Source: a virus. Taken from it: a stretch of 64,000 nt of DNA. Within the stretch, counting starts at the first letter, position 1; each line of letters begins with the position of its first letter. A program made the translations under genes and the position numbers. Positions 46,782 to 62,180 of this stretch are shown piece by piece. The notes under the pieces are model-generated. The model had not been told where the DNA came from, searched no databases, and worked only from the letters and a program-made list of their open reading frames with translations. Where the stretch lies: positions 32,001-96,000 of the IMG/VR virus record IMGVR_UViG_3300011113_000649, one strand, 5' to 3'.

Positions 46782-49427
46782 TCAACCAATAATTTGACCA
46801 AAAGATAACTTCAATTCTTCAACACGACTATCATCCATCTTATTCAGCCAGCGGTCTGACCGATGACCATAATAATGTTCAGTATCAAGTTGATTGAGAG
46901 GATTAGTCTTTCTAAGTTCTCTCAGATTGCCCGTTACCGGATGGATACACATAATATACTTCATCATCGGGTTGTTGTCAACCTCCACTTTGATCGTTTT
47001 TCTGAGATCAGCCATTTTTGGACAATCATACTGACCATTAGATGCGGACTTGAAAATCTTCTGGTATTGTCCAACAACATCATCGTTATAGATTGTCGTT
47101 AGCATACCGTTGATTTGATTGTAGACTACATTAGCATCCTTGATTTTGGCACTATCAAGACCATTCACACCAAAATCATGCAATAACTTTGTCATATGGG
47201 CATAGTAATCATCCTTCTTGAATCTGGCGATATCAAAACTCTCACGATGAATAGTGTCTGCAAAGAACTCCACAATCATTAGACTATTAATGATGTCTAC
47301 AACGTTAGGCTTATTGATAAACTTTTCATATTCCAACCCAAAAACATTTAGGATATGAAAAAGGAATTGTCTATCGACATAACCTTCACGGTAGGAACGC
47401 TCGTTCTTATCATCAAGATTATATTCATTCTTACACTTTTGTACAAGATCGTTAAACTGATAGATATCCTTAAACTTGATATCGTTCAATTTCTTGAGCC
47501 GCTTCTTGAACCAAGTATTAAAATCCACAAGGTTATAGCCGTCTTTCTTTAAACGATCAACGACGCTTTTCTTAATAGCATAAACATTTGTATTGTCAAT
47601 TATCTTGTGCTGAGTAAGAAAGTCTTTGTATCCACACAACTTGTGAATTTCTGGATAAATACTATCAGCAATACCATATCTCACAATAGGAAGATAAATA
47701 ATCTCGTCCTCGTTCTCAAGATCATCCAGTCTCTCCTGACTAAGACTTCTCATATAATGAGCATCGTTATAGTCATAGTTAAGACTCTTGGTATCCTTTG
47801 TGTCTCCCAAAATCAAGAAGATTTCTTGATCACTAACGTTACCCTTGCTGTCCTTGCTGGCACGATTCTTGGGAGTAGTTTTAATAAGATCACGATAATC
47901 AGAGACATTAAGAATATTATGTTCGCCAACGTCCTTGACTAAAGACTTAAAACCACTGCTAACCCTTGTGTGATCATTCGAGTCCACCATAAGATATGCA
48001 AAACAATCGTTAGCATTACAATACTTGGTGATAATCTTCTTTGCTGTTTCTGTAGCACTAATATCACACCAGAAGAATTTCATCTCTCCGTTCTTTTTGC
48101 CGCTACTGTTCCAATAGTTATAACCCTTACCGGTAAGAGTATCGTGATGAATTCTATCAGTAAGATAAACCATGCGACGAGAACGATAACCTGCTGTTCG
48201 ATAATTGAATACATACAGATTTTCTTCCTTATCCAACTTATATTCAATATCTTCTCCAGAGTTAATGCTATGGTCTTTGCCAGATGAGTCTGTCCAAGAA
48301 GCACCAACTCCCCATCCTCCAGCAAGATCATTCATCTGGTAATATGTCTGGATTGCTTCCACCTTGGTTTTAGCAGTAGCGATCTTGTTACTGAAATTCT
48401 TCTTCAACTCTACGAAAATATCTTGTGTCTTTTCACGCAAAGTCTTAACAACAGATTTTGTATACTGCAAACCCTCTCGACTAACATCCATCTCAAGTTC
48501 GCCAATACCAAAATCAAGTTCAAGATAAAGACCTTGATCAATGATTTCTCCAACAAAAGCCTTCCAAGAAGCAATATCTGCCTTATTGAAAGCCCTATTC
48601 CACTTAGCGATATGGTCTGGGGTTTCAGCCTTTTCCTCACCAACAAGGTGAGAAACTTCAACGGGATATGCAATATTGCCCATCAAAGCAACAACGCCAC
48701 TTTGAATACGATAATAACTGCTGGGAAACTTCATATTGTCATTATTGAGTCGGCAAACACGCCAACCTTCGCCATCAATCACAACATTACGCTGACTATA
48801 TTCTTTGGTAAAGTCCCAATAAACACCGCCCTCAATAATTGGCTTCATCTTAAAGTAATGAAAAATCCTGATGGCCTTCTGACTGAACTCTTGGAAATCA
48901 TATTGCTTAACAGCAAAACTAATTTCAAGACCATTAGGCTCATTAGTATCCGTACTATGAATAAGATTTAGAGTAGGAACACCAGCCTCATCAATAGCGG
49001 CAATATAAGTATACTGCATACCATTAAAATAAGAAGTAGTTGTAAAACTCTTGGTATAAGCGAATGGACTCTTAGAACCTAGACCAAGACAACCAACAAA
49101 ATCATTACTGTCATTCTTATTGCTAGCACCATATGTTGTATAAAGATGCTCCATGTCCTTCTGACTAAGACCAGTGCCATAATCACGAACACTAAAATTA
49201 GGATTAGCGGCAGTAGGAAGCGTTACCTTAAAAGAATTCTTATTACCAGCACTGATATGGCTATCATAAGCATTAGTAGCAAGTTCACGAATAACAGCCA
49301 TGACCTTATCGGAGTATAGAGAGTCCGAAAGGATTTTAAACATTTTGCTCGTTTGAGCAATAGTGAACTGATTTGTATTGTTGATACCCGCACTGTGAAC
49401 CTCAACCGTCCGATCCGCAAGTTTCAT
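46782..49427 (-). CDS. rIIA: rIIA-like protein (N-terminal GHKL ATPase)
   Basis: ILSDSLYSDK, IRELATNAYDSH, VRDYGTGL, GLGSKSPFAY, SREGL; adjacent to rIIB. Confidence 0.85.
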   Translation of the reverse strand: MKLADRTVEVHSAGINNTNQFTIAQTSKMFKILSDSLYSDKVMAVIRELATNAYDSHISAGNKNSFKVTLPTAANPNFSVRDYGTGLSQKDMEHLYTTYGASNKNDSNDFVGCLGLGSKSPFAYTKSFTTTSYFNGMQYTYIAAIDEAGVPTLNLIHSTDTNEPNGLEISFAVKQYDFQEFSQKAIRIFHYFKMKPIIEGGVYWDFTKEYSQRNVVIDGEGWRVCRLNNDNMKFPSSYYRIQSGVVALMGNIAYPVEVSHLVGEEKAETPDHIAKWNRAFNKADIASWKAFVGEIIDQGLYLELDFGIGELEMDVSREGLQYTKSVVKTLREKTQDIFVELKKNFSNKIATAKTKVEAIQTYYQMNDLAGGWGVGASWTDSSGKDHSINSGEDIEYKLDKEENLYVFNYRTAGYRSRRMVYLTDRIHHDTLTGKGYNYWNSSGKKNGEMKFFWCDISATETAKKIITKYCNANDCFAYLMVDSNDHTRVSSGFKSLVKDVGEHNILNVSDYRDLIKTTPKNRASKDSKGNVSDQEIFLILGDTKDTKSLNYDYNDAHYMRSLSQERLDDLENEDEIIYLPIVRYGIADSIYPEIHKLCGYKDFLTQHKIIDNTNVYAIKKSVVDRLKKDGYNLVDFNTWFKKRLKKLNDIKFKDIYQFNDLVQKCKNEYNLDDKNERSYREGYVDRQFLFHILNVFGLEYEKFINKPNVVDIINSLMIVEFFADTIHRESFDIARFKKDDYYAHMTKLLHDFGVNGLDSAKIKDANVVYNQINGMLTTIYNDDVVGQYQKIFKSASNGQYDCPKMADLRKTIKVEVDNNPMMKYIMCIHPVTGNLRELRKTNPLNQLDTEHYYGHRSDRWLNKMDDSRVEELKLSFGQIIG

Positions 49428-49459
49428 TGTTTTTCTCCAAGTGTCCTGTGATGAGCCCA

Positions 49460-49487
49460 ATCATACCATACTAGTATCGGTTGTCAA
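49460..49487 (-). promoter_or_regulatory. sigma70-type promoter with CCGATA in spacer
   Basis: TTGACA-ACCGATACTAGTATGG-TATGAT. Confidence 0.75.
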
Positions 49488-49732: not shown

Positions 49733-50053
49733 TCAATTATCTTCCTCACTCGACCAGAAATCATCTTCTTTTGGAACCCAAGTTTCGTCTGTATCTGTAT
49801 CATAGTCATTTTCTAGATCTTCATCATCTTCTTCCGTAAGCATGATAGTGAAATTATTTAATATTTCCAACATAGTATCAACTTTAAATACTATATTTTG
49901 AACCTCTTTTTTAATTTCTGATATTTCTTTAGCAATTTTTGTGTTGTATTTCTGCAGTTCTACTATTTCTTTTGAGAATAGTTTGTCATTTTCGTTTAGT
50001 TCTTTACTAGTCTTGTCGATTTGTTTGCTAATCTGATCAAGATCTTTTGACAT
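49733..50053 (-). CDS. Coiled-coil protein with acidic tail
   Basis: Heptad pattern, D/E-rich C-terminus. Confidence 0.6.
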   Translation of the reverse strand: MSKDLDQISKQIDKTSKELNENDKLFSKEIVELQKYNTKIAKEISEIKKEVQNIVFKVDTMLEILNNFTIMLTEEDDEDLENDYDTDTDETWVPKEDDFWSSEEDN

Positions 50054-50385
50054 TATACTCTCCTAAATTGCTTATATACTGATATATCGCCATTTTGGTC
50101 TATTTTTTTATCTTCATACGAAGAGGCGGCTCTTCTATAAAATTCTTGTTTGATATTTTCTAATACACCAGTTATCATTGCTATCTTATTATAATTTAAC
50201 TCTCCGCTAGTCCTCATTATAATATTACTAAATAGATAATTTAAATCTCCAAGCACTTTCATAAATTGAACATCTGACGGGTCTGTTTCGAGACATATTT
50301 TTTCCATAGTACATCTAAAATAGAATCCTATGTCTTGAGCGTATTTATCAAGTGCTGGTCTATTTTGTTCATTAATATAGGGCAT
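50053..50385 (-). CDS. Conserved-looking phage protein
   Basis: MPYI...GDLNY...GVLE..KQEFYRR....YEDKK...NGD. Confidence 0.7.
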   Translation of the reverse strand: MPYINEQNRPALDKYAQDIGFYFRCTMEKICLETDPSDVQFMKVLGDLNYLFSNIIMRTSGELNYNKIAMITGVLENIKQEFYRRAASSYEDKKIDQNGDISVYKQFRRV

Positions 50386-50388
50386 TTA

Positions 50389-50964
50389 TTATTCCTCGCA
50401 TTGACATTGATATTTTAAACAGTAACAGCATTTTGGGCCGGGACAAGAATTTCCCCAAGCATTAGCATTTCCATCAAAACTTTCTTTACCAGTGTCTATA
50501 CAAACAACTTTTTTCTTTTTTCCTCTATTAACCAACCCAACATTATACCAATGACAATCCCAAAATTTTAAGCCGGTTTTAGAATATATTTCATCGACCA
50601 GAAATTGAATATTAGCCATACCAATTCTAGTATTCGCCTTATGGGTGATAGCCAATTCCGTAACATATCCCCAATCACTAGGTTCTGGCTGATAAAGATC
50701 ATTTTCTGGAGCAAATTCTAGTTTAGAAATTGTGCTGTATATTTTTGGTGCAAGATCGAACTCTTCTAATTTTTTGTGATATCTATATGATTCTTGGGCT
50801 TTTTTTTTATTACGAATCTCCTTAAATACCATATCTTTCTTATCTTTGATGGCATAAACCTGACAATATCCACCCTCATCAAACCAATCGCTATAATCTA
50901 TAAGATAATTAGGATTAATCATGTGTTTTGTCAACAATTTTTGATCCCATGATTTCTTGAGCAA
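50389..50964 (-). CDS. Protein-kinase-like fold protein
   Basis: EGGYCQVY (Gly loop), VFKE, DCHWYNVG (catalytic loop), CIDTG. Confidence 0.7.
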   Translation of the reverse strand: MLKKSWDQKLLTKHMINPNYLIDYSDWFDEGGYCQVYAIKDKKDMVFKEIRNKKKAQESYRYHKKLEEFDLAPKIYSTISKLEFAPENDLYQPEPSDWGYVTELAITHKANTRIGMANIQFLVDEIYSKTGLKFWDCHWYNVGLVNRGKKKKVVCIDTGKESFDGNANAWGNSCPGPKCCYCLKYQCQCEE

Positions 50965-51244
50965 TATGAATAGCCTCGTTGAGATCGTTTGCTTCGGCCA
51001 ATTTAATTGGGCCTTTTGGAATATCTATCCAATATGATCCATATACTCCATAAAAAACATTCCCAAGGGTACGGTCGTGCATCAAAAATTCTGTAGCGTC
51101 ATAAAATATATCCAGATGCCATTCACCATTTTCGTCTTGAACCTCTTTTACTGTATCAACAAGAAGAAAAGAAAAATTAGGGTGCTTAAAATCTGGATCG
51201 CTGTAAACAACTCCTCTATAAAATTTATTAGGTAGACTTATCAT
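50915..51244 (-). CDS. Hypothetical protein
   Basis: Coupled ORF. Confidence 0.55.
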   Translation of the reverse strand: MISLPNKFYRGVVYSDPDFKHPNFSFLLVDTVKEVQDENGEWHLDIFYDATEFLMHDRTLGNVFYGVYGSYWIDIPKGPIKLAEANDLNEAIHIAQEIMGSKIVDKTHD

Positions 51245-51590
51245 TATGTTTTTTCCAATCTTCAGTTAAAAATTCTTCTCTGTTGGAGTATAGAGGAACA
51301 ACTTTTGTTTGATTATCATATTGATTATAGTGGAGTCTTAGATCATAGAGATCAAGTCTTTCGTTTAACTTACCAAAAGCAACGGGGTTTTCAAATATTT
51401 GTTTAATATCTTTGTTTTCTTGACGAGTTTTAGCTAAATCTTTTTCACAACTTAGCCATCTTTCAGAATTTTTGCTGTCTTCTTTTAATTGTTGCAACTC
51501 TTGCTTGGCATTATTAACAACAAAACGATCAGCACCATTTGCCCAAGCAAAATCAATAAGGAACTCTATGGGATTTGAGTGTTCATTCAT
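51228..51590 (-). CDS. Hypothetical protein
   Basis: Coupled ORF. Confidence 0.55.
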   Translation of the reverse strand: MNEHSNPIEFLIDFAWANGADRFVVNNAKQELQQLKEDSKNSERWLSCEKDLAKTRQENKDIKQIFENPVAFGKLNERLDLYDLRLHYNQYDNQTKVVPLYSNREEFLTEDWKKHNDKST

Positions 51591-51805
51591 GAAGAAAATC
51601 CTATTTTAAATTTTTCTGGAGCCATAGTCTCTATAGTAGAAGGAGCAAAGTATTCTGTATAATATGACCGACCATTCCACCAGCCACATTTGTAGCTAAC
51701 ATTATTATCGCTAGAAATATTAATTTCGACAATGGTTCCATAAACATCGTCGGTCAACTTAACCTTACTACCAATCTTGTTTAGTTCAATTACATTTTTG
51801 CTCAT
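51587..51805 (-). CDS. Small SH3-like/beta protein
   Basis: KIGSKVKL...G...YKCGWW...KIGF. Confidence 0.55.
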   Translation of the reverse strand: MSKNVIELNKIGSKVKLTDDVYGTIVEINISSDNNVSYKCGWWNGRSYYTEYFAPSTIETMAPEKFKIGFSS

Positions 51806-51845
51806 TATATTTCCTTAAGGCTTGTTTCAATATCTACTAATTAAA

Positions 51846-51918
51846 TAAGAGCGGCGGGATTCGAACCCGCACTTGCGACATTTTAAGTGTCGTGTCTCTG
51901 CCGTTGGACTACGCTCTC
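51846..51918 (-). tRNA. tRNA-Leu(UAA), short variable loop, no encoded CCA
   Basis: GAGAGCG...CGACA CT-TAA-AA TGTCG CAAGT GCGGG TTCGAAT CCCGC CGCTCTT A. Confidence 0.9.
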
Positions 51919-51922
51919 ATAA

Positions 51923-51999
51923 GTAATCGACTATAATAATCATTGGTCGAGGTTGATTATGTTTGGGCCTCGCTCATTATAACTATTGTAGCCGACTAC
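51923..51999 (-). ncRNA. Long stem-loop carrying an anti-RBS sequence
   Basis: 21-bp outer stem (20 paired, 4 G-U, 1 mismatch), inner CGAGG/CCTCG stem; CATAATCAACCTC is complementary to the RBS and ATG of the upstream gene. Confidence 0.7.
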
Positions 52000-52021
52000 A
52001 CTAATTTTAAACTATCGACTC

Positions 52022-52303
52022 TCAGCCGTTAGTATGGGCCTTGAGGCGACGAACAATCTCAGCCATAGCCTCGACGTTATCAACCGTCTTAGTAGGCTTT
52101 GCACGTTCCATAGAAGGCAATTCAATGCCCTTCTTAGCCAGAGCGGCTTTTGTACGAGCAAATCGTGCCATCGTACTAGCAACCTTCTGACCAGTCTTAA
52201 TAGCAATCTCAGCATAAGTCTTGGACGAATAAACTGCCTCAAGAAATTGTTCATCACCGCAACGAACACGCTTCTGCTTCTCAACATTAGTAACTTCAGC
52301 CAT
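52022..52303 (-). CDS. Small basic HTH-like protein
   Basis: GGAGG RBS; TYAEIAIKTGQKVASTMAR. Confidence 0.7.
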   Translation of the reverse strand: MAEVTNVEKQKRVRCGDEQFLEAVYSSKTYAEIAIKTGQKVASTMARFARTKAALAKKGIELPSMERAKPTKTVDNVEAMAEIVRRLKAHTNG

Positions 52304-52381
52304 AATCAACCTCCAAATCTTAACTAACCAACTATCTACGCGAGTCAGTCACGCGACTGATTCTCTCGCTTCGACTCTTGT

Positions 52382-52409
52382 ATTCTATCATGCTTTATCG
52401 ACTTGTCAA
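52382..52409 (-). promoter_or_regulatory. sigma70-type promoter with TCGATA in spacer
   Basis: TTGACA-AGTCGATAAAGCATGA-TAGAAT. Confidence 0.75.
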
Positions 52410-52516
52410 CAGGCCGACTTGATTTTTTTCTTTGTTACTGAAAATATTTTTCCAATTTTTTTCCCAAACCTCATAACTTACTGTCTTTGGCCTCGTTTTG
52501 TCTCCTTTTCCATTAC

Positions 52517-52828
52517 TCATTTGAGTATCTCCGATAAATTTATATCCTCAAAAGTTTTTGTATTTTTATCTATTGTAATCTGAGTAGCGGTATTATTTGT
52601 AATTGATCTCAACTTATTAGAATAATTTACTACTTCTTGTAAGTTTTTAATACAACTAGGCATTGTTTGTAATATAAAATCACCGTAAGTTTTATGTGTA
52701 GAAATTTCTGCTATAATTTTACATATGATATCATCAATGACTAAGATTATTTTTGGATCTTCTCTGTATCTATTGACTAGTCTTTGTGCTATCCATCGAA
52801 TATATTCTAAATCATTTTGATTTAACAT
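52517..52828 (-). CDS. Hypothetical protein
   Basis: 103-aa ORF. Confidence 0.55.
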   Translation of the reverse strand: MLNQNDLEYIRWIAQRLVNRYREDPKIILVIDDIICKIIAEISTHKTYGDFILQTMPSCIKNLQEVVNYSNKLRSITNNTATQITIDKNTKTFEDINLSEILK

Positions 52829-53038
52829 TCTAGTACGAAACTCCAGTATCTACTATCTTCTTTCTTAGTTATTTATAAAGAACGTATCGTTAACCATAAA
52901 TCCTAGTATAAATCCTATTGACAATAATCCTAAAAACTGATCGTGTGACCAAAAACAAGAACCTATAAAACTAGCAGTAGCCCCATATAATATTATCAGT
53001 TTTTGTTTTTCTTGTTTAGTCATGCCGATCCCTTTAAT

Positions 53039-53659
53039 TTATTTATCAGATTTTTTAAGATTATCTATAGCCCATAGTGGTTGCAAATTACTATAATGAA
53101 AACATTTTTTCTGTTCTTCTATTTTTGTTAGATCAAAACTAGCACAAGGCTTTATATGGTCTATATGCCATTTTCCATAGTTATCCCAATTCATACCATC
53201 GACAAAAAGATTCTCTAAATATAGTTTTAGATAGTCCCAAGAACAACCAGTTAAATCATATGATGTGCTATTTTTTGATCCTCGTATTAAAGCCATTCTA
53301 ATACGATTACTAATAATTGTTCTTAATCTAAATTGAATATTCTTTTTTCTTTTAAGTCTGCGTTGTTTATTAATTTTATCTCTGTATTTTTCTCTATATT
53401 TTTTAGCATTTATTGAAATTTTATCTGGATTATTTTTTCCCCACAGTTTTCTATGTTCATTAAGACAATCTCTATTTTTCTCACGATATGCCTTTTGTTG
53501 TTGCTTTATTTTCTTTTTATTCTTTTGCCTTCTAATCTGATTGTATACTTTATGACAAAGTTTACAGTATGGGGATTTTCCATCTTTTGATGCTTTTTGA
53601 CTATGGAAATGATCGATTTTTTGTTTTTTATTGCATTTTATACATTGTTTTATTTTCAT
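53039..53659 (-). CDS. HNH homing endonuclease
   Basis: N-terminal C..C/C..C, basic helix, WHIDHIKP...HYSNLQPLWA.DN.KK. Confidence 0.85.
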   Translation of the reverse strand: MKIKQCIKCNKKQKIDHFHSQKASKDGKSPYCKLCHKVYNQIRRQKNKKKIKQQQKAYREKNRDCLNEHRKLWGKNNPDKISINAKKYREKYRDKINKQRRLKRKKNIQFRLRTIISNRIRMALIRGSKNSTSYDLTGCSWDYLKLYLENLFVDGMNWDNYGKWHIDHIKPCASFDLTKIEEQKKCFHYSNLQPLWAIDNLKKSDK

Positions 53660-53699
53660 TGGTATATATCTTTTCGCTTATTGTATACACCAAATCAAA

Positions 53700-54413
53700 C
53701 TAATTTTCAAAAACGTATGACCAATACCTAGAATCTGTTTTATTTTGCTTGGCATCCCAAAATATGCACCTAGCAATATATGCAGGAACGCCTAGTTTAC
53801 CACAATTAACACTCCAGTGCCTTTCCATCTTTTTATATTGATCAAGACCTTTTTTTGATTGATATGTCAGTGTTTTCATACCATACAATTCCAACATATG
53901 AGTGTCTCCACAAAAAACTCTGCACTCATTAGGGTGACACTGTTCCAAAGCAAACGAAACTTTAGCGGTTCCTAGACCAGAGATATTATTAACAATCTGA
54001 TCTCTTTTCTTTACATGATACTTTTTACTGGTTAGATAAAATTGCTTAGGATCTTGCCAGAATTTATCCTTAAACTGCCAAATAAATTTTGTACGATTAT
54101 TATATAGTCCGCATCCACTATTCTTGATTTTTTCTCTAAGCAGTTCTTTATTGTCGATCCAATCATTGAAATCTTTGATAGCATTGTAGCCATTAACATT
54201 ACTTTTCCATGTTGTATGAACACTCATAAAACTAAACAAATATCGTCGGAAAATATCTTCCACATTTTGAGGACGAACACCCTCCCAGTATTCTTTATAT
54301 GCTACCACCTTATCTCGCGGAAAAGTAGCAAAAAAAGTATCGGCCTCGCTTTTGTCAAGAATAGTATTCTGAATAGGAATTACTGTGTTTTCAACAATCA
54401 TGGTAGTCTCCAA
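53700..54413 (-). CDS. HhH-type DNA glycosylase-like protein
   Basis: RDQIVNNISGLGTAKVSF...GDTHML, similar to OGG/HhH-GPD core. Confidence 0.55.
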   Translation of the reverse strand: METTMIVENTVIPIQNTILDKSEADTFFATFPRDKVVAYKEYWEGVRPQNVEDIFRRYLFSFMSVHTTWKSNVNGYNAIKDFNDWIDNKELLREKIKNSGCGLYNNRTKFIWQFKDKFWQDPKQFYLTSKKYHVKKRDQIVNNISGLGTAKVSFALEQCHPNECRVFCGDTHMLELYGMKTLTYQSKKGLDQYKKMERHWSVNCGKLGVPAYIARCIFWDAKQNKTDSRYWSYVFEN

Positions 54414-54426
54414 TGGGTATGCTACG

Positions 54427-54455
54427 ATTCTACACTAGTGGTATCGGCTTGTCAA
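54427..54455 (-). promoter_or_regulatory. sigma70-type promoter with GCCGATA in spacer
   Basis: TTGACA-AGCCGATACCACTAGTG-TAGAAT. Confidence 0.75.
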
Positions 54456-54529
54456 GACCCGTTTCTTGAGTGTAGGGAATCTAAATTTTTTGGTGTATAC
54501 TAATACTAGTATCTAAATAAGGAGTCCGT

Positions 54530-55168
54530 ATGAAAAAACAATGTAGTGAATGTGGTAAATATAAAATTGCTAATAATAAAAATTTCCATAAAAGCAAACA
54601 TCATAAATATGGACTTCATCCGTACTGTAAGGTATGTCAGAAATCTAAAGACAAAAAAAGATATAAAAAAAACGGCGATAAAATACGCAACAGAGTTAGA
54701 CAAAGAACTAAAGATTATCCAGAAAAATTAAAAGCAGAACGTAGGGCATATTATCGTAAAAATAAAAGTAAATTACTCAAACAATGTAAAGAATACGCTC
54801 AAAGACCAGAGAGAAAAAAAAGAATGAGAGAAATACATCAACATAGAATGGAAAATGATATTTTGTATAAATTAAGATTTGTGTTAAGATCAAGAATAAG
54901 TAAAGCGTTTAAAAGAAAAACTGAAAAAAGTAGAGATATTTTAGGTTGTTCTATTGAAGAAGTTCGTAAACATTTAGAAAACCAATTCACCGAAAAAATG
55001 TCCTGGGATAATCATGGAACTTATTGGGAAATAGACCATATAATACCTCTCGCATCTGCCACAGATCAAAAAACTCTTAGAAAATTATGTCACTATTCCA
55101 ATCTACAGCCTTTGGAGGCTAGTAAAAATAGAATAAAAGGTTCTAGATTAGATTGGACAAATATTTAA
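54530..55168 (+). CDS. HNH homing endonuclease (only convincing plus-strand gene)
   Basis: TAAGGAG RBS; WEIDHIIP...HYSNLQPL; paralog of 53039..53659. Confidence 0.88.
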   Translation: MKKQCSECGKYKIANNKNFHKSKHHKYGLHPYCKVCQKSKDKKRYKKNGDKIRNRVRQRTKDYPEKLKAERRAYYRKNKSKLLKQCKEYAQRPERKKRMREIHQHRMENDILYKLRFVLRSRISKAFKRKTEKSRDILGCSIEEVRKHLENQFTEKMSWDNHGTYWEIDHIIPLASATDQKTLRKLCHYSNLQPLEASKNRIKGSRLDWTNI

Positions 55169-56086
55169 TTAAGTATCTCTTTTTTCTCCATAAAGATATT
55201 TAAAGGTCGGAAAACGAAGACTTAGATTTCCGTCTTGGTTCTTCGTTTCTTCAAAATATTGTACCAAAATTTGCTTACCTAAAATCTTACAAGGATTACA
55301 ATAAAACTCTTGTCGTTGATCAATAGTAAAACCACTACCAACTCTAACAGTATGACCCTTATGCTTGATCATAACGCAACTTAGCATAGTTTCTTCATGC
55401 TCCTTGCCATTTAACACATACCTAAACGGCCCCATTTCTGTGTCTACTACTTCATATTCATCATCAAAAAACTTCTTCACCTTTAGCAAATCTTTGCTTC
55501 GCTTGCCCTTATATGGTTCATCTGCTCGTAGCATAACTCCTTCCCAAAAATTATCTGCTGCTTCTTTAACCCATTCTTGAAAATGTTCATCATTATGAAT
55601 CAACTCTTGCTCCAAGACAGTCAAGCATGGACACTCATTGGGTTGCATAATGGCACACAGATGAGCGTATCGAATAGAATATGGTCGATTGCTTTGTCCT
55701 TTTTTGCTGTAAAATTCATCAATAGTAATTATATCGAAAATCTTAAATGACGGATTAGGAATAGTATGATCCTTCTTGCGAAGTTCTTTCATAACTCCTT
55801 GAAAATCTTCATTACCATCTTCATCTACTAGACAAAGTTCTCCATCAAGAACTACGTTAGAAATACCAAGAGCTTTAATCCCATCCCTAACAATATTAAG
55901 AGTATCAAAAATTTTTCCTGTGCGGGAATAGAAGGTAGTATCGCCATTAGTATCAACAATACCAACACATCTACAATTGTGTTTGAGTATACCATTAGCA
56001 AAAAAATTAGCATTATCTGCAACTTCTAGTTCATATTTATATTTTGATTCAATTTTTTCTATTGACTTAATTTTAACAGTTTGCAT
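55169..56086 (-). CDS. Split-intein C-fragment (37 aa) fused to C-terminal part of ATP-dependent DNA ligase
   Basis: YELEVADNANFFANGILKHN/C; then CRC, YSRTGK, LDGEL, FDI, EGVMLR, KRS..LLKVK, VGSGF, LRFP. Confidence 0.92.
   Translation of the reverse strand: MQTVKIKSIEKIESKYKYELEVADNANFFANGILKHNCRCVGIVDTNGDTTFYSRTGKIFDTLNIVRDGIKALGISNVVLDGELCLVDEDGNEDFQGVMKELRKKDHTIPNPSFKIFDIITIDEFYSKKGQSNRPYSIRYAHLCAIMQPNECPCLTVLEQELIHNDEHFQEWVKEAADNFWEGVMLRADEPYKGKRSKDLLKVKKFFDDEYEVVDTEMGPFRYVLNGKEHEETMLSCVMIKHKGHTVRVGSGFTIDQRQEFYCNPCKILGKQILVQYFEETKNQDGNLSLRFPTFKYLYGEKRDT
55976..56086 (-). mobile_element. Split intein, C-fragment
   Basis: Blocks F/G ending HN, with Cys+1 at 55973-55975. Confidence 0.88.
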
Positions 56087-56961
56087 AATCTAGTCTCAAT
56101 TTTGTTAATATTTTTCTGTATGTCCGATGCCCATAATAGGTATACCTTGTAGCCAAAACTTTTCAAGTGGTTGACGCGAATTTTATCTTTTTTCCAAACA
56201 TCTTTGGCACATAATTCTCCTGCCCATGTTATGATTATATCATTTGGTTTATATTTTCTAGGATTGGCATGAAATGTATCTCCATAAATTTCGATAATAA
56301 TCTTTTTTTGTTCTATAATTATATCTGGTCGAGGATTATATATTTTTTTTAAGGCTTTGTTGTATCTATTAAACTGTATACCATCAATATTTTCACTTAT
56401 ATAGATTATATTGTATTTATCTAATATATTTTCTACTCTTTGGTGTGGTATAGATTTTTTACCATTATTTCTTCTATAGCTTGGCAAATCAACCGGATTT
56501 TCCACTCCATATTTTTTAATAAGTGTTTGTTTAGTTTTTTCTTTAACGCTTTCTAATTGAAAAACATTAGTAATTCCTTTACCATATTTTTGTTCTATGG
56601 TTTTCTGGGTTTGCTTAGATTGAAAATTATTCTTATAACCATAATTTCTTAAATTAGTTTCTATTCTTTTTTGTTTAGTATTCGGATTATTTGCTGCCTC
56701 TTTGAGGGTCTGTGTTTTAATGCCTAGCTCTTTGCATCTAGTAATTATATGCTTAGTTTTAATTTTAGCATTGTTTATCTCTAATTCTAGCTGATAGCAA
56801 GACTTGCCTAACTTAATTATATTATCTTTTAGGTATTTTTTAGTTAAAATTTTATTTCTATAATTAGTTATATATTGAACATAATTTTTACATTTCGCTT
56901 GATGCCCATATAATTGTTGCTTAGTCTTTAATCCGGCCTTATTGCAATATTGACATTTCAT
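56059..56961 (-). CDS. Free-standing Vsr-like (EDxHD-type) homing endonuclease
   Basis: YG...N repeats; RPDI...IIEIYGDTFHAN...KD..R...GYKVYLLW. Confidence 0.8.
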   Translation of the reverse strand: MKCQYCNKAGLKTKQQLYGHQAKCKNYVQYITNYRNKILTKKYLKDNIIKLGKSCYQLELEINNAKIKTKHIITRCKELGIKTQTLKEAANNPNTKQKRIETNLRNYGYKNNFQSKQTQKTIEQKYGKGITNVFQLESVKEKTKQTLIKKYGVENPVDLPSYRRNNGKKSIPHQRVENILDKYNIIYISENIDGIQFNRYNKALKKIYNPRPDIIIEQKKIIIEIYGDTFHANPRKYKPNDIIITWAGELCAKDVWKKDKIRVNHLKSFGYKVYLLWASDIQKNINKIETRLCKLLKLSQ

Positions 56962-57019
56962 TTAAAAATTTCCCTTCTGGTATTTAATACACAGATATCG
57001 AGAAAGTTGGATGGAAATT

Positions 57020-57838
57020 TCAATCAAAAAGAATTTCTTCACTTCCGTCCAGTTCATCTACGCGACGATAACACTTGAGTTTAGGAATATATACTGTGTC
57101 ATTACCAGTAATATTAAGAGTAATGCCATTTTCTAAAGTAATTTTATACCATTGTGTAGGCTTGGTTTCAGAAATATCATGAGCATTACTCATATGATTA
57201 ATAATTGGTTTATACTCAATTTGATTAGTTTTATGATTAAAAGACTTAATATTCCCATTAATCTTATGCTCCACAACATAGCCAATAGGCAATACAACAC
57301 CGGTATCAAACTCTACCAGAGTGTCATAATCTACACAGCCATCAATCTTTCTGCTAACATACCAACCGTCCTCCCAGTCTACAAGTTTAGGTTCATATTT
57401 ATCAGCAAGAGCAACACTGAATTCTGGAATATGATCTTTGATTGCTTTGTTAATAATCTTATCGCCAGCACGGGTTTTCAAATCCTTGTCGATAATACAA
57501 TGGATCAAATCCTCATGGTGCGGATAAGTGTCAACAAAAGAATTAACCGCACCAATAGCGTCGTGACCAGTAATCTTGCGACTCTTTAGATCATCAAGAA
57601 GATCAAAAATATTATCATATCTTATTCCACGAAGATGACTTTTCTTTTTCAAATTATCGCTTGTGACATTATATTGCCACATTGGATGATAAGTATACAG
57701 AAAAATATTCTTAGCAAAAGTTGCTGATGCTGTTTGGTGACAGCAATAGTCTACAATAATACCTTCTTTATCCTTAGTGCTGCTAGTAGCCCTAAGATCA
57801 CGAACCATTCCCCAAACATAATCAAAATCGTGAGTCAT
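57020..57838 (-). CDS. N-terminal part of ATP-dependent DNA ligase fused to split-intein N-fragment (105 aa)
   Basis: IIDKDL, FSVALA, YVSRKIDG then CVDYDTLV (block A) ...ITGND...RVDEL; ATG 57838 after AGGAG. Confidence 0.92.
   Translation of the reverse strand: MTHDFDYVWGMVRDLRATSSTKDKEGIIVDYCCHQTASATFAKNIFLYTYHPMWQYNVTSDNLKKKSHLRGIRYDNIFDLLDDLKSRKITGHDAIGAVNSFVDTYPHHEDLIHCIIDKDLKTRAGDKIINKAIKDHIPEFSVALADKYEPKLVDWEDGWYVSRKIDGCVDYDTLVEFDTGVVLPIGYVVEHKINGNIKSFNHKTNQIEYKPIINHMSNAHDISETKPTQWYKITLENGITLNITGNDTVYIPKLKCYRRVDELDGSEEILFD
57023..57337 (-). mobile_element. Split intein, N-fragment
   Basis: Cys1 directly after ligase KIDG; HINT-like pattern; acidic C-terminus. Confidence 0.85.
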
Positions 57839-57863
57839 CCAAATAGTCTCCTGTGTTTGGTGC

Positions 57864-57892
57864 AGTATAACACACTCCAAAGCGTCTGTCAA
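57864..57892 (-). promoter_or_regulatory. sigma70-type promoter for ligase
   Basis: TTGACA-17 nt-TATACT. Confidence 0.75.
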
Positions 57893-58073
57893 ATATCTAT
57901 TTTGAGCTGTGCTTTTTTAGCTTTTCTTTTAATTTTTTGAGATATTTATCTTGTTCTAATTTTTTAGGATCTTGTTCTTCTTTTTTAAGAATTTTTTTAT
58001 ACAACTTTTTCCAGAAACTCATCTTTATTATCCTTAAGTAAAATAGAGAAAGGTCGTGGGCTACGCTTAGAAT

Positions 58074-58101
58074 ATCATAACTATCTGAATCCTATTGTCA
58101 A
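58074..58101 (-). promoter_or_regulatory. sigma70-type promoter
   Basis: TTGACA-16 nt-TATGAT, upstream of a ~41-aa basic ORF starting at 58022. Confidence 0.55.
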
Positions 58102-58175
58102 TTATCGACAGTCTGGCTCTGATTCTTTAAGACTTCCTGTTTTAGTCTTATGTCTAAGATGATAAAGATTATATA

Positions 58176-58943
58176 TTATTTAACTGATTTATCTAACTTA
58201 GTTTTAGATTCATTTATCCATTCCAAAAAATTATATATTCTAGTATGACCAGATTCTTCTCCATACTTAGACATCGGTGATCTTCCAATCGTCATAATAC
58301 AAGAATTTATTCCAGCTAGTTTTCCATCTATAAATAAACCACCACCACTATCTCCACTACATATCATATACTCTAAAGAAGTATGACTTTTACTTTCGGG
58401 CCAAGAGGGAGAACAAATTAATAAATCTTTATGTATATCATCTACAGTGTTTGAGCCTGCTCTTAATTTATTATCTGATTTACTAATACCAGTATTGAAA
58501 TTTCCTGTTAATCCCCAACCCGCTATTGATGCTAATTTTCCACTTTCTTTGCCTTCTCTATATAAAGGAGGGTAGTTTTTTAAATTAAAATCTTTTTTAG
58601 AATATCCTATGGCGATATCTGCAGTTCCAACTTTTGTTTTAAAATCTTCATGAATAATTATATTATCTAGTAAAAATTTTTCTTCATTAATTTTTATATA
58701 GCAAATTTTGTAACCTTTTACAACATGTGCTGCGGTAAGCACAAAATGTTTTTCTATAACAACACCAGACGCACAAAATACAGTACCATCTTCATATGTA
58801 CCATATACTTGTACTACGCAATAGAATTTAGAGCCAAAATCTAAATACTCTTTATCTGGTATGTTAGGATCTATCGTTCCTGAATAAGATAGTGAAGTCA
58901 ATCCGAATAAAAATAACAAAAGTAATCTTTTAAAGATAAGCAT
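58176..58943 (-). CDS. Exported trypsin-like serine protease
   Basis: Signal peptide; LTAAH, DIA, GDSGG. Confidence 0.92.
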   Translation of the reverse strand: MLIFKRLLLLFLFGLTSLSYSGTIDPNIPDKEYLDFGSKFYCVVQVYGTYEDGTVFCASGVVIEKHFVLTAAHVVKGYKICYIKINEEKFLLDNIIIHEDFKTKVGTADIAIGYSKKDFNLKNYPPLYREGKESGKLASIAGWGLTGNFNTGISKSDNKLRAGSNTVDDIHKDLLICSPSWPESKSHTSLEYMICSGDSGGGLFIDGKLAGINSCIMTIGRSPMSKYGEESGHTRIYNFLEWINESKTKLDKSVK

Positions 58944-58982
58944 AATTAAGCCTCCTTATATGGGTAGCTTAATTATAATACA

Positions 58983-59336
58983 CTATTTTATTAGTTTTCT
59001 GTTTCTAACCAAGATTAGATAATTCAATGCTTTAACTACACCTTCCAAATTATCTCCTAATTTTCCTAACCCCTCATTACATTTACTACACAACCAACCC
59101 CTAAAACTATCGTCACTATGATTATGATCTAAACACCATTTGAAAGGAACTTTTCCACAACATTCGCATACTTCTGGTTTTGATGGAGCCTTTTTATGAA
59201 GTTTACTTCTTATCTTAGAATGTTTTTTGACGCATTTTCTACATCTACTATCTAGATTATCTTTATACATACTGTGCTTAGGAAAACTTTTGAAGTTTTT
59301 TCGTTCGTGACAGTATGCACAAATTTTTCTAGGCAT
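58983..59336 (-). CDS. Endonuclease VII-like protein
   Basis: CECCG...LDHNH....RGWLCSKCNEGLG.LGD. Confidence 0.88.
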   Translation of the reverse strand: MPRKICAYCHERKNFKSFPKHSMYKDNLDSRCRKCVKKHSKIRSKLHKKAPSKPEVCECCGKVPFKWCLDHNHSDDSFRGWLCSKCNEGLGKLGDNLEGVVKALNYLILVRNRKLIK

Positions 59337-59381
59337 CGTTACACTTTATTCTCCTAAAAATTTATTATTTTTATATTTTAA

Positions 59382-59737
59382 TGGAGGCGAGGGAAATCGA
59401 ATCCCTGTCCTATCATATTTCAAATTATATATTCTACAAGTTTATTTTATTCATAAATTAAATAGGATTACAGAACAAACAAGATTAATTCCTATCTTAT
59501 CGACTTCTCTTAACCTGCAACCCGTCGAACATTGTAGGTGCAGAGGGATTTAACGACAGACTTTTGATCCCTACCCTCATTCGGTATCGCAGTCTGTTAC
59601 TGCCCTTTTTTGTCAGGCAGCAAGTGCTAACTGAGTTTCGCCAGTTAAAGCGTTTAATCGACTTTTAAAGTGGCCTGTCGATCAACCACTACTTGCTAAT
59701 ATAATCTTCTTTATGTAGTCGAAACCTTTACGCCCCC
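59382..59737 (-). ncRNA. ssrA: tmRNA, tag (A)GETQLALAA
   Basis: 5' GGGGGCG..TTCGAC; 3' AGGGA-TTCGATT-TCCCT-CGCCTCC-A with G3-U70 pair; tag ORF 59613..59642 after TTAACT. Confidence 0.92.
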
Positions 59738-59949
59738 TAATTTTTAGGAAATGTTTTTTCTGATTCCAATTTTTTAATTTCTTTTGTCAATAAATTATAT
59801 TCATATAAACTCACCCAAGGATTAACTGCGGAGATAAATTCATTTGACTTGTTAAGTCTATAATTAAGAATTATATTATATCCAAAAGAGACTGATAGTA
59901 AACCAATAAGTATTGTGTATATTGGTAAATGTTTTGATCTGTATTGCAT
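59737..59949 (-). CDS. Small membrane protein
   Basis: GAGG RBS; one TM. Confidence 0.55.
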   Translation of the reverse strand: MQYRSKHLPIYTILIGLLSVSFGYNIILNYRLNKSNEFISAVNPWVSLYEYNLLTKEIKKLESEKTFPKN

Positions 59950-59971
59950 AATATGAAAACCTCTGCGTTAA

Positions 59972-60045
59972 TAGGGTGTGTAGGAGTCGAACCTACCTTT
60001 TGAATACCTTATAAGAGTATTTGCAACAACCGGCTGCAACACCCC
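59972..60045 (-). tRNA. tRNA-Ile(UAU), atypical short D-loop
   Basis: GGGGTGT/ACACCCT acceptor; ATACT CT-TAT-AA GGTAT; GTAGG TTCGACT CCTAC. Confidence 0.8.
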
Positions 60046-60053
60046 ATTTTTAT

Positions 60054-60082
60054 ATTATAGCATATTGACTAAACCATGTCAA
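60054..60082 (-). promoter_or_regulatory. sigma70-type promoter for the tRNA-Ile/tmRNA unit
   Basis: TTGACA-17 nt-TATAAT with TGn extension, 8 nt before the tRNA 5' end. Confidence 0.8.
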
Positions 60083-60420
60083 CTCTTGAATCTAAAGTCG
60101 TGAACCTTTAGACCATATTCTGTGGCTAGATCAAACATCATCTGGGTACCAATTCCCCCATTGAATAAAACACATGCGTCTGCATATTCTGCCATTTGTT
60201 TGTTTCGTAGATAGCCTGCTCTTTTGCCATATTTGTTCCAATTTGCTGGAAATATTTTAATAGGAACATCATTCCTCCTGCCCCACAATTCACCACAAGC
60301 ATCCACCCCTCTTGCTGCTCCAGATACAACTTGACTAATTTCTGATCTAAGATTGTCTAATTTAAGGAAATCTTCATCTGTTAGGATATATTCTCTACCG
60401 CCAGCAATAATCGTTTTCAT
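60079..60420 (-). CDS. YspA/SLOG-family protein
   Basis: IIAGGR, VSGAARGVD, ANW...G..AG..RN..M. Confidence 0.85.
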   Translation of the reverse strand: MKTIIAGGREYILTDEDFLKLDNLRSEISQVVSGAARGVDACGELWGRRNDVPIKIFPANWNKYGKRAGYLRNKQMAEYADACVLFNGGIGTQMMFDLATEYGLKVHDFRFKS

Positions 60421-60950
60421 TTTTGAGACTCAACAAAATTTCTGTATGTACCCATTACTATTCCACTAGTTGTACCAACATTGAGAGAACGAACACTTCC
60501 ATAATTAGATATAGTTAGAATAACATTAGCTCTATCTAAAATTAGATTAGATAGTCCTTTACTCTCTTCCCCAAAAATAAATATAGGTTCAAGAGCGTTA
60601 TCGAATTTATAATGAAAAAGGTTAATGGTTTTATCGTCATATTCTGGAATATTATTTTCTATAGCAATAAGAGTTCGTCCAGAACACTGTGCAAGAAAAG
60701 ACTCTTCATCTTTATGATGATAAATTGGCGTGTAGTGATGAGTTCCTACACTACCCCTTTTATCCCACTTTCTTTTGCCTACATAATGCACACTACGAAA
60801 GCCAAAAAAATTTGCATTTCGAATCATTGTGCTAAGATTGAAGTCTCCTCCAATATTGATCATACCAACGCTAGCGGGAATACTATTCTGAGAACAATAT
60901 TTAGCAATATCCGGCACTGTCAAATCTTTAAGATCATCAAGTACGTTCAT
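60417..60950 (-). CDS. SpoU/TrmH-family (SPOUT) RNA methyltransferase
   Basis: NLSTMIRNANFFG, IFGEESKGL, VRSLNV. Confidence 0.88.
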   Translation of the reverse strand: MNVLDDLKDLTVPDIAKYCSQNSIPASVGMINIGGDFNLSTMIRNANFFGFRSVHYVGKRKWDKRGSVGTHHYTPIYHHKDEESFLAQCSGRTLIAIENNIPEYDDKTINLFHYKFDNALEPIFIFGEESKGLSNLILDRANVILTISNYGSVRSLNVGTTSGIVMGTYRNFVESQK

Positions 60951-61134
60951 CTTTGTTCAATTTTCTTTCCAAGCCTTTTAATTCTTGTTCCAACCTAAAT
61001 ATTTTATCATACATTTCAGAACAACGACGACAAAAATCAGAACTAATGTAAGTTCTGGTTTCCCATATTTCTTCTTTAATATTAGATATTCTATTGACTA
61101 TCTTTTCTCTTTCGTTTTCGTTTGGGTTTATCAT
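60937..61134 (-). CDS. Hypothetical protein
   Basis: Coupled ORF with CRRC. Confidence 0.5.
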   Translation of the reverse strand: MINPNENEREKIVNRISNIKEEIWETRTYISSDFCRRCSEMYDKIFRLEQELKGLERKLNKDERT

Positions 61135-61486
61135 TTTTTGGAGTCTCCTTTTGCCAAAAAACCATCTCGTTTAATGTATCGTCCCAAGCACATTCAACCA
61201 AATCTTTTGCTGCGAGTTTAGCCAGGCCGACATTATGAATCCAAGCAGATACTTGTTCAAAAATATTTTGATTAGTTTCTTCATTAAGAAGAGGATATTC
61301 ATGATCATCGAAACCAAGACAGTTATTCTTGACCAGACCAATCATTTGATCTAAACTAATATAAGAATCTAAATCATCGTTTGAACTATTTTCACTAATA
61401 CTGTCTGCTGCTGCTGCTCTCATTTGAGAAACGTAACCATTCAAATCAATGATCGCATATACTTCTTTTTTCATTGTAGTCTCCAA
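61091..61486 (-). CDS. Hypothetical protein, paralog of 44936..45361
   Basis: Shared LVE..(W/F)DD..N..VFW.K motif. Confidence 0.65.
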   Translation of the reverse strand: METTMKKEVYAIIDLNGYVSQMRAAAADSISENSSNDDLDSYISLDQMIGLVKNNCLGFDDHEYPLLNEETNQNIFEQVSAWIHNVGLAKLAAKDLVECAWDDTLNEMVFWQKETPKNDKPKRKRKRKDSQ

Positions 61487-61753
61487 TTATTTGATAAATT
61501 TAGATACACCACCGGACGAATCGCAAGTATCTTTAATACGGTCAATAGTATCTTGAAAAGTCAACTGTCCTCTTGGTAGCCATTTTACATCATTATACAA
61601 GGCTGTCAATATCTGAGGCATCCAGTGTTGGTACGCATCTGAATATTGTTCAGGAAAATATATTTGTAATATCGCATCTACTTTAGTAAGAGATTGCTTT
61701 ATTTCATCTCTAATATTCAATAAATCGTTTATCTTAGATTGCTGATTAGACAT
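61487..61753 (-). CDS. Hypothetical protein
   Basis: 88-aa ORF. Confidence 0.55.
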   Translation of the reverse strand: MSNQQSKINDLLNIRDEIKQSLTKVDAILQIYFPEQYSDAYQHWMPQILTALYNDVKWLPRGQLTFQDTIDRIKDTCDSSGGVSKFIK

Positions 61754-61766
61754 GATAAGGTTGTTG

Positions 61767-62180
61767 CTATGTATTTGTTACAGCGTCTTTCTTTTTAAGT
61801 TTGAAAATCTTGTGTTTGACTTTCCAAACGCCGGTTTCTGGATTTTGGTAGTCTGGTCCCATATAAATATGGGCAAATCCAGTGTTTTTGTCCAAACCCC
61901 AAGCATGAATTCCTTTAGGGTCAACTCGTTCAACAACAAACTTACCCCTATAACCCATAGGAATAAGTTCGCCATCATGCAGAAAATATGGGCCTCCACC
62001 AACCTTGATTTTATCACCCTTTTCAAGTTGCTTCCAATCAAAATCTTTCACAAACTTGAGAGTACGCTTTTCTTTATTGGTAATCTTAAAAGAAAAAACA
62101 TGGTTGCAATTCTTACAAACATAGGCTCGTGGCCCACAAAGATCATTACAATCTGGACAAGTCTTTTTACCTTTTGGCAT
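61767..62180 (-). CDS. Zn-ribbon protein
   Basis: KTCPDC....GPR...CKNC; AGGAG RBS. Confidence 0.65.
   Translation of the reverse strand: MPKGKKTCPDCNDLCGPRAYVCKNCNHVFSFKITNKEKRTLKFVKDFDWKQLEKGDKIKVGGGPYFLHDGELIPMGYRGKFVVERVDPKGIHAWGLDKNTGFAHIYMGPDYQNPETGVWKVKHKIFKLKKKDAVTNT

Follow-up and report, generated by a model that had tools for sequence, protein, structure and literature searches.

Why should the hairpin that follows a short viral gene carry, in and beside its loop, an exact complement of the RBS and start codon of that same gene? The question arises at the gene for a 93-aa protein, P0001, on the minus strand of a 64,000-nucleotide stretch of DNA (hereafter the window, meaning the whole stretch that was analyzed), which is part of a 105.5-kb IMG/VR virus record with approximately 30% G+C. 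In the direction of transcription, the locus contains the following features.

52382..52409, minus strand: early promoter of the sigma70 type, with -35 TTGACA, a 16-nt spacer and an extended -10 (TG plus TAGAAT); 11 of the 12 hexamer positions and the TG match.
52340..52369, minus strand: 5'-UTR stem-loop with lower stem GCGAG/CTCGC, apical stem CAGTC/GACTG and loop GCGT, supported by covariation.
52301..52314, minus strand: translation initiation region, consisting of the SD GGAGG, a 6-nt spacer and the AUG, near-invariant in relatives.
52022..52303, minus strand: gene for the 93-aa HTH-like protein P0001, supported by its translation, dN/dS and a predicted model.
51923..51999, minus strand: 3'-UTR hairpin RNA with a 20-bp outer stem, internal loops, a 5-bp inner stem and a 15-nt loop, supported by RNAfold and covariation.
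51968..51972, minus strand: CGAGG, the inner stem's 5' strand; this SD look-alike pairs with the anti-SD CCTC, according to RNAfold and the alignment.
51949..51961, minus strand: anti-RBS 13-mer, with 9 nt in the loop and CCTC in the inner stem's 3' strand; its core is kept in hairpin types A and C.
51845..51919, minus strand: tRNA-Leu(UAA) (ARAGORN, Rfam), probably co-transcribed.

The initiation region reads GGAGGTTGATTATG at 52314-52301 on the minus strand, with the ATG at 52303, and the ORF (52303..52022, minus strand; 93 aa) ends with the stop codon at 52024-52022. Further along the same strand, CATAATCAACCTC at 51961-51949 is the exact 13-nt reverse complement of 52313-52301, precisely as the original prediction had claimed for the RBS and start codon of this gene. 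The 10-nt core of the complement has exactly two occurrences in 64 kb, namely the loop copy and the RBS copy; across the window's 207 mechanically listed ORFs, no other complement between a start region and a 3' flank is longer than 10 nt, and the 10-nt cases are AT-only. The 13-nt complement between the RBS and the loop of gene 52303..52022 exceeds chance.

Folded with RNAfold, the hairpin at 51999..51923 has an energy of -28.6 kcal/mol (z = -5.2), and none of 200 shuffles folded as well; the opposite strand folds less well (-23.3 kcal/mol, z = -2.7). The outer stem consists of 20 bp and one C.A mismatch and includes four G-U pairs, so that the original prediction, which had described a 21-bp stem with four such pairs, was correct about the G-U pairs and overstated the length. 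The 5-bp inner stem pairs 51972-51968 with 51952-51948, and the 15-nt loop holds CATAATCAA; both the loop content and the placement of CCTC in the inner stem were found by RNAfold to be as described. The spacing of 4 nt that had been given between the hairpin and the tRNA-Leu also agrees with the tRNA calls, which place the 5' end of tRNA-Leu(UAA) at 51919 (ARAGORN) or 51918 (Rfam), 3-4 nt past the stem.

Comparison with related loci shows that this hairpin is a real, conserved RNA under selection. In an alignment of 48 hairpins of related loci (A1), of which 47 are distinct and which come from uncultured lake phages, 94.7% of the cells are paired, and changes on both sides are present in 11 of the 17 outer-stem pairs. 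The covariation score was reached by no shuffle, and when partners were slid by 1-3 columns, pairing was only 28-54%. Several alignment columns are mostly G-U, which is compatible with the minus strand only. Of the 47 distinct hairpins, 46 share an identical inner stem (GAGG/CCUC), the sole stem without covariation; this invariance fits a stem that has also to match the SD.

With a covariance model of the hairpin, a single copy and no paralogous hairpins were detected in the window and in the 105-kb record. The hairpin had no match in Rfam at E up to 1 across 50000-62000, and a search of 51900-52420 at E up to 10 returned only a chance-level snoU61 (snoRNA; E 2.6), far below the gathering score. 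The 20-bp outer stem with internal loops might suit an RNase III processing hairpin of the T7-early type, for which roughly two turns of dsRNA with internal loops would be expected. Two further identities were considered and rejected: an integron attC-like or MITE-like DNA hairpin, for which the core-site motifs misfit, the locus has its own promoter and the G-U pairs indicate RNA; and a CsrA-type double GGA site, of which the upstream GGA is missing in the window's subclade.

The RBS complement was surveyed in 89 distinct related loci, comprising 59 of type A, 3 of type C, 22 of type B and 5 others, and a complement to the SD region is kept in 62 of the 89 (the 59 of type A and the 3 of type C). 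All 59 type-A hairpins, that of the window included, contain the core TCAACCTC, and approximately half of them retain 11-13 nt reaching the AUG; it is an 8-10-nt core, and not the full 13-nt complement, that is conserved. In A2, a large type-A clade, the complement consists of 8 contiguous nt plus a bulged complement just upstream of the SD. The three type-C hairpins are built on a different scaffold and again carry an anti-SD (AACCTCCAA), which is extended upstream. At the 22 type-B loci, the gene, promoter and hairpin are kept and the apex is different. The original prediction had named loss of the complement beside a retained gene as an outcome that would refute it; 18 of the 22 type-B loci present this outcome, the exceptions being three whose 11-nt complement to spacer and AUG includes wobble pairing (z approximately -2.7) and L104 (z -2.0). 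At the five other, more distant loci (L084, L114, L160, L168 and L174; 48-78% protein identity to the window), the hairpins are plain or of another build and a convincing RBS complement is missing, and at L180 a loop of the old kind stands beside a quite different RBS. When the duplex between start region and hairpin was compared with that formed by shuffled hairpins, the median z was -3.1 for type A, -3.2 for type C and +0.15 for type B. Judged from these sequences, the anti-RBS feature is widespread and not universal.

Covariation between loop and RBS in relatives, which the original prediction had proposed as a check, was not observed. No compensatory change between RBS and loop was found among the related loci, and when the stretch preceding the SD was compared with the 3' strand of cognate and of non-cognate hairpins, the difference was not significant (p = 0.2); because of this result, the clade-specific upstream extensions seen in A2, L069, L099 and L184 are reported as observations only. 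The SD-spacer-AUG segment is almost invariant where a loop complement exists, and classical compensatory change therefore cannot be seen. The loop core and the SD-spacer are fixed despite a median dS of 0.58 at neutral sites. Within the 8-nt loop core of type A, the sole substitutions are from C to U (L058 and L069) and keep a wobble with an RBS G; just 5' of the core, a change from A to G (L045 and L048) retains a wobble with an RBS U.

The rate at which the RBS itself changes points in the same direction. Changes were counted by parsimony on the ORF tree, which recombination may blur. Along type-A branches (total length 3.9), the RBS changed state five times; four of these changes are 3-nt indels next to the AUG that leave a 12-nt complement intact, and one, in L069, is disruptive. 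Along branches without a covering loop (length 4.1), 12 disruptive changes were counted. For the contrast of 1 versus 12 disruptive changes, a binomial estimate gives p of approximately 0.003, calculated from few and not fully independent events. We consider that the rate contrast lends moderate support to a functional link between loop and RBS, and that the comparative pattern as a whole supports purifying selection on the anti-RBS loop in most lineages.

In the window's own mRNA, RNAfold assigns a probability of 0.69 to the duplex between RBS and loop, a value explained by the window's hairpin being the weakest among those of its type; for homologues whose hairpins are stronger, the RNAfold probability of the long-range pairing is approximately 0 under a nested model that cannot represent kissing. 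We also calculated an accessibility-corrected interaction energy, defined as the duplex energy plus the opening costs. Where the complement of a lineage spans 11-13 nt or its loop is of type C, this energy lies between -2.5 and -9.9 kcal/mol; it is approximately 0 in A2 unless the bulged upstream extension is counted, and is 0 or worse in most of type B.

The gene, the hairpin and the tRNA lie in line. A promoter and terminator scan detected neither element between the ORF, the hairpin and the tRNA and one strong promoter upstream, and no antisense promoter was found at the locus beyond chance matches. No intrinsic terminator was called by the scan in the window, where TTAT, not a U-run, lies between the stem and the tRNA. 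In most relatives, a tRNA 5' end, mostly that of tRNA-Leu(UAA), lies within a few nt of the hairpin; these 5' ends differ among loci, and some are unlike tRNA-Leu by eye.

Four relatives are arranged differently and share a stem followed by a U-run, the feature of an intrinsic terminator: in L033, L046 and L177, the tRNA-Leu is found approximately 430-540 nt beyond the U-run, and in L119, ARAGORN calls no tRNA in 1.5 kb of flank. In L033, L046 and L177, the hairpin together with the gained U-run looks like an intrinsic terminator. All four loci retain an 11-13-nt complement, and since the complement is kept where no tRNA adjoins, the hairpin belongs to the gene and not to the tRNA; the proposal that the element couples expression to tRNA maturation has no support. 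As separate observations, the insert in L033, L046 and L177 includes an ATG that apparently opens a small ORF, and in L077 and L099, the sequence after the hairpin starts like the 5' half of a tRNA, with no tRNA called by ARAGORN; the tRNA may be interrupted in these two, for example by an intron.

What, then, might the hairpin do? We regard as roughly an even proposition a reading in two parts, in which the hairpin protects the 3' end of the mRNA and, in most lineages, its loop also acts as a fold-back inhibitor of translation. The structure is established, as is selection on the RNA, the loop core and the RBS; co-transcription, processing and the fold-back effect are inferences. Judging from the layout, a single transcript would run from the promoter through the gene, the hairpin and tRNA-Leu(UAA). 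Cleavage by RNase P at the tRNA 5' end would leave an mRNA that ends 3-4 nt after the 20-bp stem, and the stem at this new 3' end would shield the mRNA from 3' exonucleases; in relatives without a directly adjoining tRNA, the same stem with a U-run would serve as a terminator.

The second part is suggested by conservation and energetics. The C/A-rich loop would offer 9 unpaired nt to the spacer and AUG, where pairing would start; the helix would then spread into CCUC:GAGG, displacing the SD look-alike of the hairpin, and the SD and start codon of its own mRNA would become occluded. By this occlusion, full-length transcripts would be translated less, and would perhaps decay faster, so that an early burst of the HTH-like protein would be limited. 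The shortness of the ORF would let ribosomes that load co-transcriptionally escape, and the net result would be a brief burst of protein. The fold-back inhibitor of the original prediction stands in part: the covarying RNA, the constrained loop, the frozen spacer and the favorable energies argue for it, but the missing compensatory change and the loss of the complement in type B argue against it.

A possible, though somewhat unlikely, alternative is that the hairpin is purely a structural 3'-end element, whether as a block to exonucleases, as an insulator ahead of the tRNA, as an RNase III site or as a terminator, and that its loop is conserved for another reason, such as binding of a protein or nuclease, with the match to the RBS being non-regulatory. 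Such an element would account for the persistence of type-B hairpins without the complement, for the plain hairpins or terminators of the distant homologues L084 and L114, and for the several relatives that use hairpin and U-run as a terminator; it also agrees with the absence of compensatory covariation and with pairing that is not favored in many homologues. However, it leaves unexplained why a conserved loop core should exactly complement a conserved SD-spacer, why the inner stem alone should lack covariation, why the differently built type-C hairpins should again carry an anti-SD, and why the RBS spacer should vary only where it is uncovered by a loop.

We think it improbable that the hairpin acts in trans, as an RNA of approximately 80-100 nt released by RNase P at its 3' end and by an endonuclease after the stop codon, which would serve as an anti-SD sRNA on its own or other mRNAs. 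The stable stem and the exposed C/A-rich loop with its seed-like complement would suit such a molecule, whose 3' end RNase P would set given that the hairpin lies directly before the tRNA, and small RNAs derived from 3' UTRs are a known class (mentioned by PMC3868564). Yet the 10-nt core finds only one exact target within the 64-kb window, the gene's own RBS, the hairpin is single-copy in the 105-kb record according to the covariance model, and we identified neither a 5' processing signal nor, in the window, a U-tail or Hfq-type 3' end.

Still more speculative, and to our minds very doubtful, is a three-way switch among SD, anti-SD and SD look-alike that would be set by tRNA-linked 3'-end formation, RNase P cleavage giving a released or refolded anti-SD sRNA that would shut off expression in cis and in trans. 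If such a switch were real, the transition from early to middle expression would be linked to the phage's own supply of tRNA-Leu(UAA).

Least probable is a DNA inverted repeat that flanks the gene and serves as a site for a recombinase or for a DNA-binding protein, perhaps the HTH-like product itself, because, although a gene for an HTH-like protein is indeed flanked by two inverted copies of the same 13 bp and a shared protein site would also give joint conservation of both copies, the 3' copy lies in a hairpin loop where G-U pairs and covariation indicate RNA-level selection on the minus strand, the tolerated loop changes preserve wobble, the complement slides around the SD in A2 and type C, unlike an operator, and the sites lie in the RBS and 3' UTR, away from the promoter.

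The preferred reading, protection of the mRNA 3' end combined with fold-back inhibition in most lineages, can be set beside a small number of known systems. In Staphylococcus aureus icaR mRNA, the 3'-UTR motif UCCCCUG pairs with the gene's own SD, which blocks initiation and yields a substrate for RNase III (PMC3868564). The phage element would resemble icaR in having an anti-SD motif in the 3' UTR of its own mRNA, in encoding a small DNA-binding regulator and, by analogy, in the proposed effect of blocked initiation with faster decay. It shares no sequence or structure homology with icaR; unlike in icaR, the phage motif forms part of a 77-nt hairpin with an SD look-alike, in which it occupies loop and inner stem, and it reaches over spacer and AUG as well; the phage 3' UTR is short, and a tRNA follows. 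In Bacillus subtilis hbs, a 14-bp pairing between 5' and 3' UTRs partly overlaps and modulates an RNase Y site and stabilizes the mRNA (PMC5737220). Both hbs and the phage locus have a structured 5' UTR and a strong SD, and the phage locus would share with hbs a small, highly expressed gene for a DNA-binding protein and long-range pairing between 5' and 3' UTRs, whereas only the pairing at the phage locus would cover the SD and AUG.

The fold-back inhibition (fbi) element in hok mRNA of plasmid R1, cited in the icaR study (PMC3868564), is a further precedent. The comparison with hok drawn in the original prediction holds only loosely: the phage element is not a member of the hok family, its partner being the start region itself and its product being HTH-like and not a small toxin. 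In hok, fbi pairs with an upstream tac element, 3' trimming activates the mRNA, and the system also includes the antisense RNA Sok and a small membrane toxin; none of these traits (tac/fbi pairing, 3' trimming, Sok or toxin) was seen at the phage locus. For T7 gene 1.2, Saito and Richardson reportedly described in 1981 an RNase III site located 3' of the gene. The sequence of this 3' processing hairpin can pair with the gene's own RBS, in mutants of the site or in RNase III-deficient hosts. Both cases concern an early phage mRNA whose 3' hairpin sequence is able to pair with its own RBS; in T7, however, the effect belongs to mutants or deficient hosts, whereas the complement at the phage locus is a conserved wild-type feature. 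The phage element is not homologous to icaR, hok, hbs or T7 gene 1.2, and its likeness to the last three is looser than that to icaR. To our knowledge, control by pairing between a gene's own 3' UTR and 5' start is represented in bacteria and phages by only a handful of cases such as these.

The related loci form a natural mutant series, with dozens of variants in uncultured large lake phages, some clades of which have shortened, shifted or lost the complement; the fold-back idea is therefore directly testable by reporter swaps. Even if fold-back proved non-functional, the hairpin would still be a well-supported new structured RNA motif absent from Rfam.

The gene itself appears to be an early regulator gene built for a sharp, short burst of expression, as suggested by its consensus promoter, 5' stem-loop and strong SD, by a coding sequence without host-rare codons, and by a 3' hairpin followed by a tRNA needed by later genes. 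The strong promotion that had been claimed agrees with the near-consensus promoter (11 of 12 hexamer positions and the extended -10 TG); relatives conserve both hexamers (-35 and -10) and the CGATAA in between. This CGATAA motif falls within the 16-nt promoter spacer in nearly all relatives, and conservation in the region 52382-52430 of related loci goes beyond the hexamers to an A-rich TTCAAG block upstream of the -35. Between the promoter and SD-spacer-AUG, the predicted 5' UTR is approximately 72 nt. Its stem-loop (52340-52369), which is placed a few nt past the predicted transcription start, has compensatory changes in 5 of 6 apical pairs across 38 relatives and a near-constant GCGT loop, and its lower stem switches on both sides between clades, from GCGAG/CTCGC to CACGG/CCGTG types (by eye). 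This stem-loop may be a 5' stabilizer or a protein site.

With a dN/dS of 0.15 and pairwise dS values with a median of 0.58 and a maximum of 1.5, P0001 is encoded by a real gene whose neutral sites are well diverged. Its relatives number in the hundreds, all on uncultured viral or metagenome contigs, many of them 100-240 kb, and the viral collection contains at least 157 loci besides those on metagenome contigs; against cultured phages, tblastn of the P0001 protein gave no match, and blastn of the locus matched only the tRNA. For homologues of 35-49% identity, DNA loci were not found by single-protein scans of viral contigs, except L084, and two metagenome scans recovered none. In the predicted model of P0001 (pLDDT 79), three helices form a bundle and a fourth helix lies at the C terminus. 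P0001 matches HTH DNA-binding domains weakly, its Pfam and PHROG matches are below threshold only, sequence and fold searches of the PDB gave weak matches only, and the Atlas matches are viral hypothetical proteins only. In view of the weak HTH-domain matches and the predicted model, 'HTH-like' is a reasonable, unproven description of P0001.

The gene at 52022-52303 contains no TTA, ATA or AGA codons and has a GC3 of 0.39, and its local G+C island is due to the lack of these three codons, which is a better explanation than horizontal transfer; we rejected the latter. Among six flanking genes that were checked, five have GC3 values of 0.16-0.30, four of those five with several TTA, ATA or AGA codons, and a more distant ORF of 893 codons (46782-49460) has a GC3 of 0.36. 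Elsewhere in the window, a tmRNA at 59382-59737 (Rfam, 122 bits; tag ending ALAA) and a tRNA-Ile(UAU) at 59971-60046 are encoded on the same strand.
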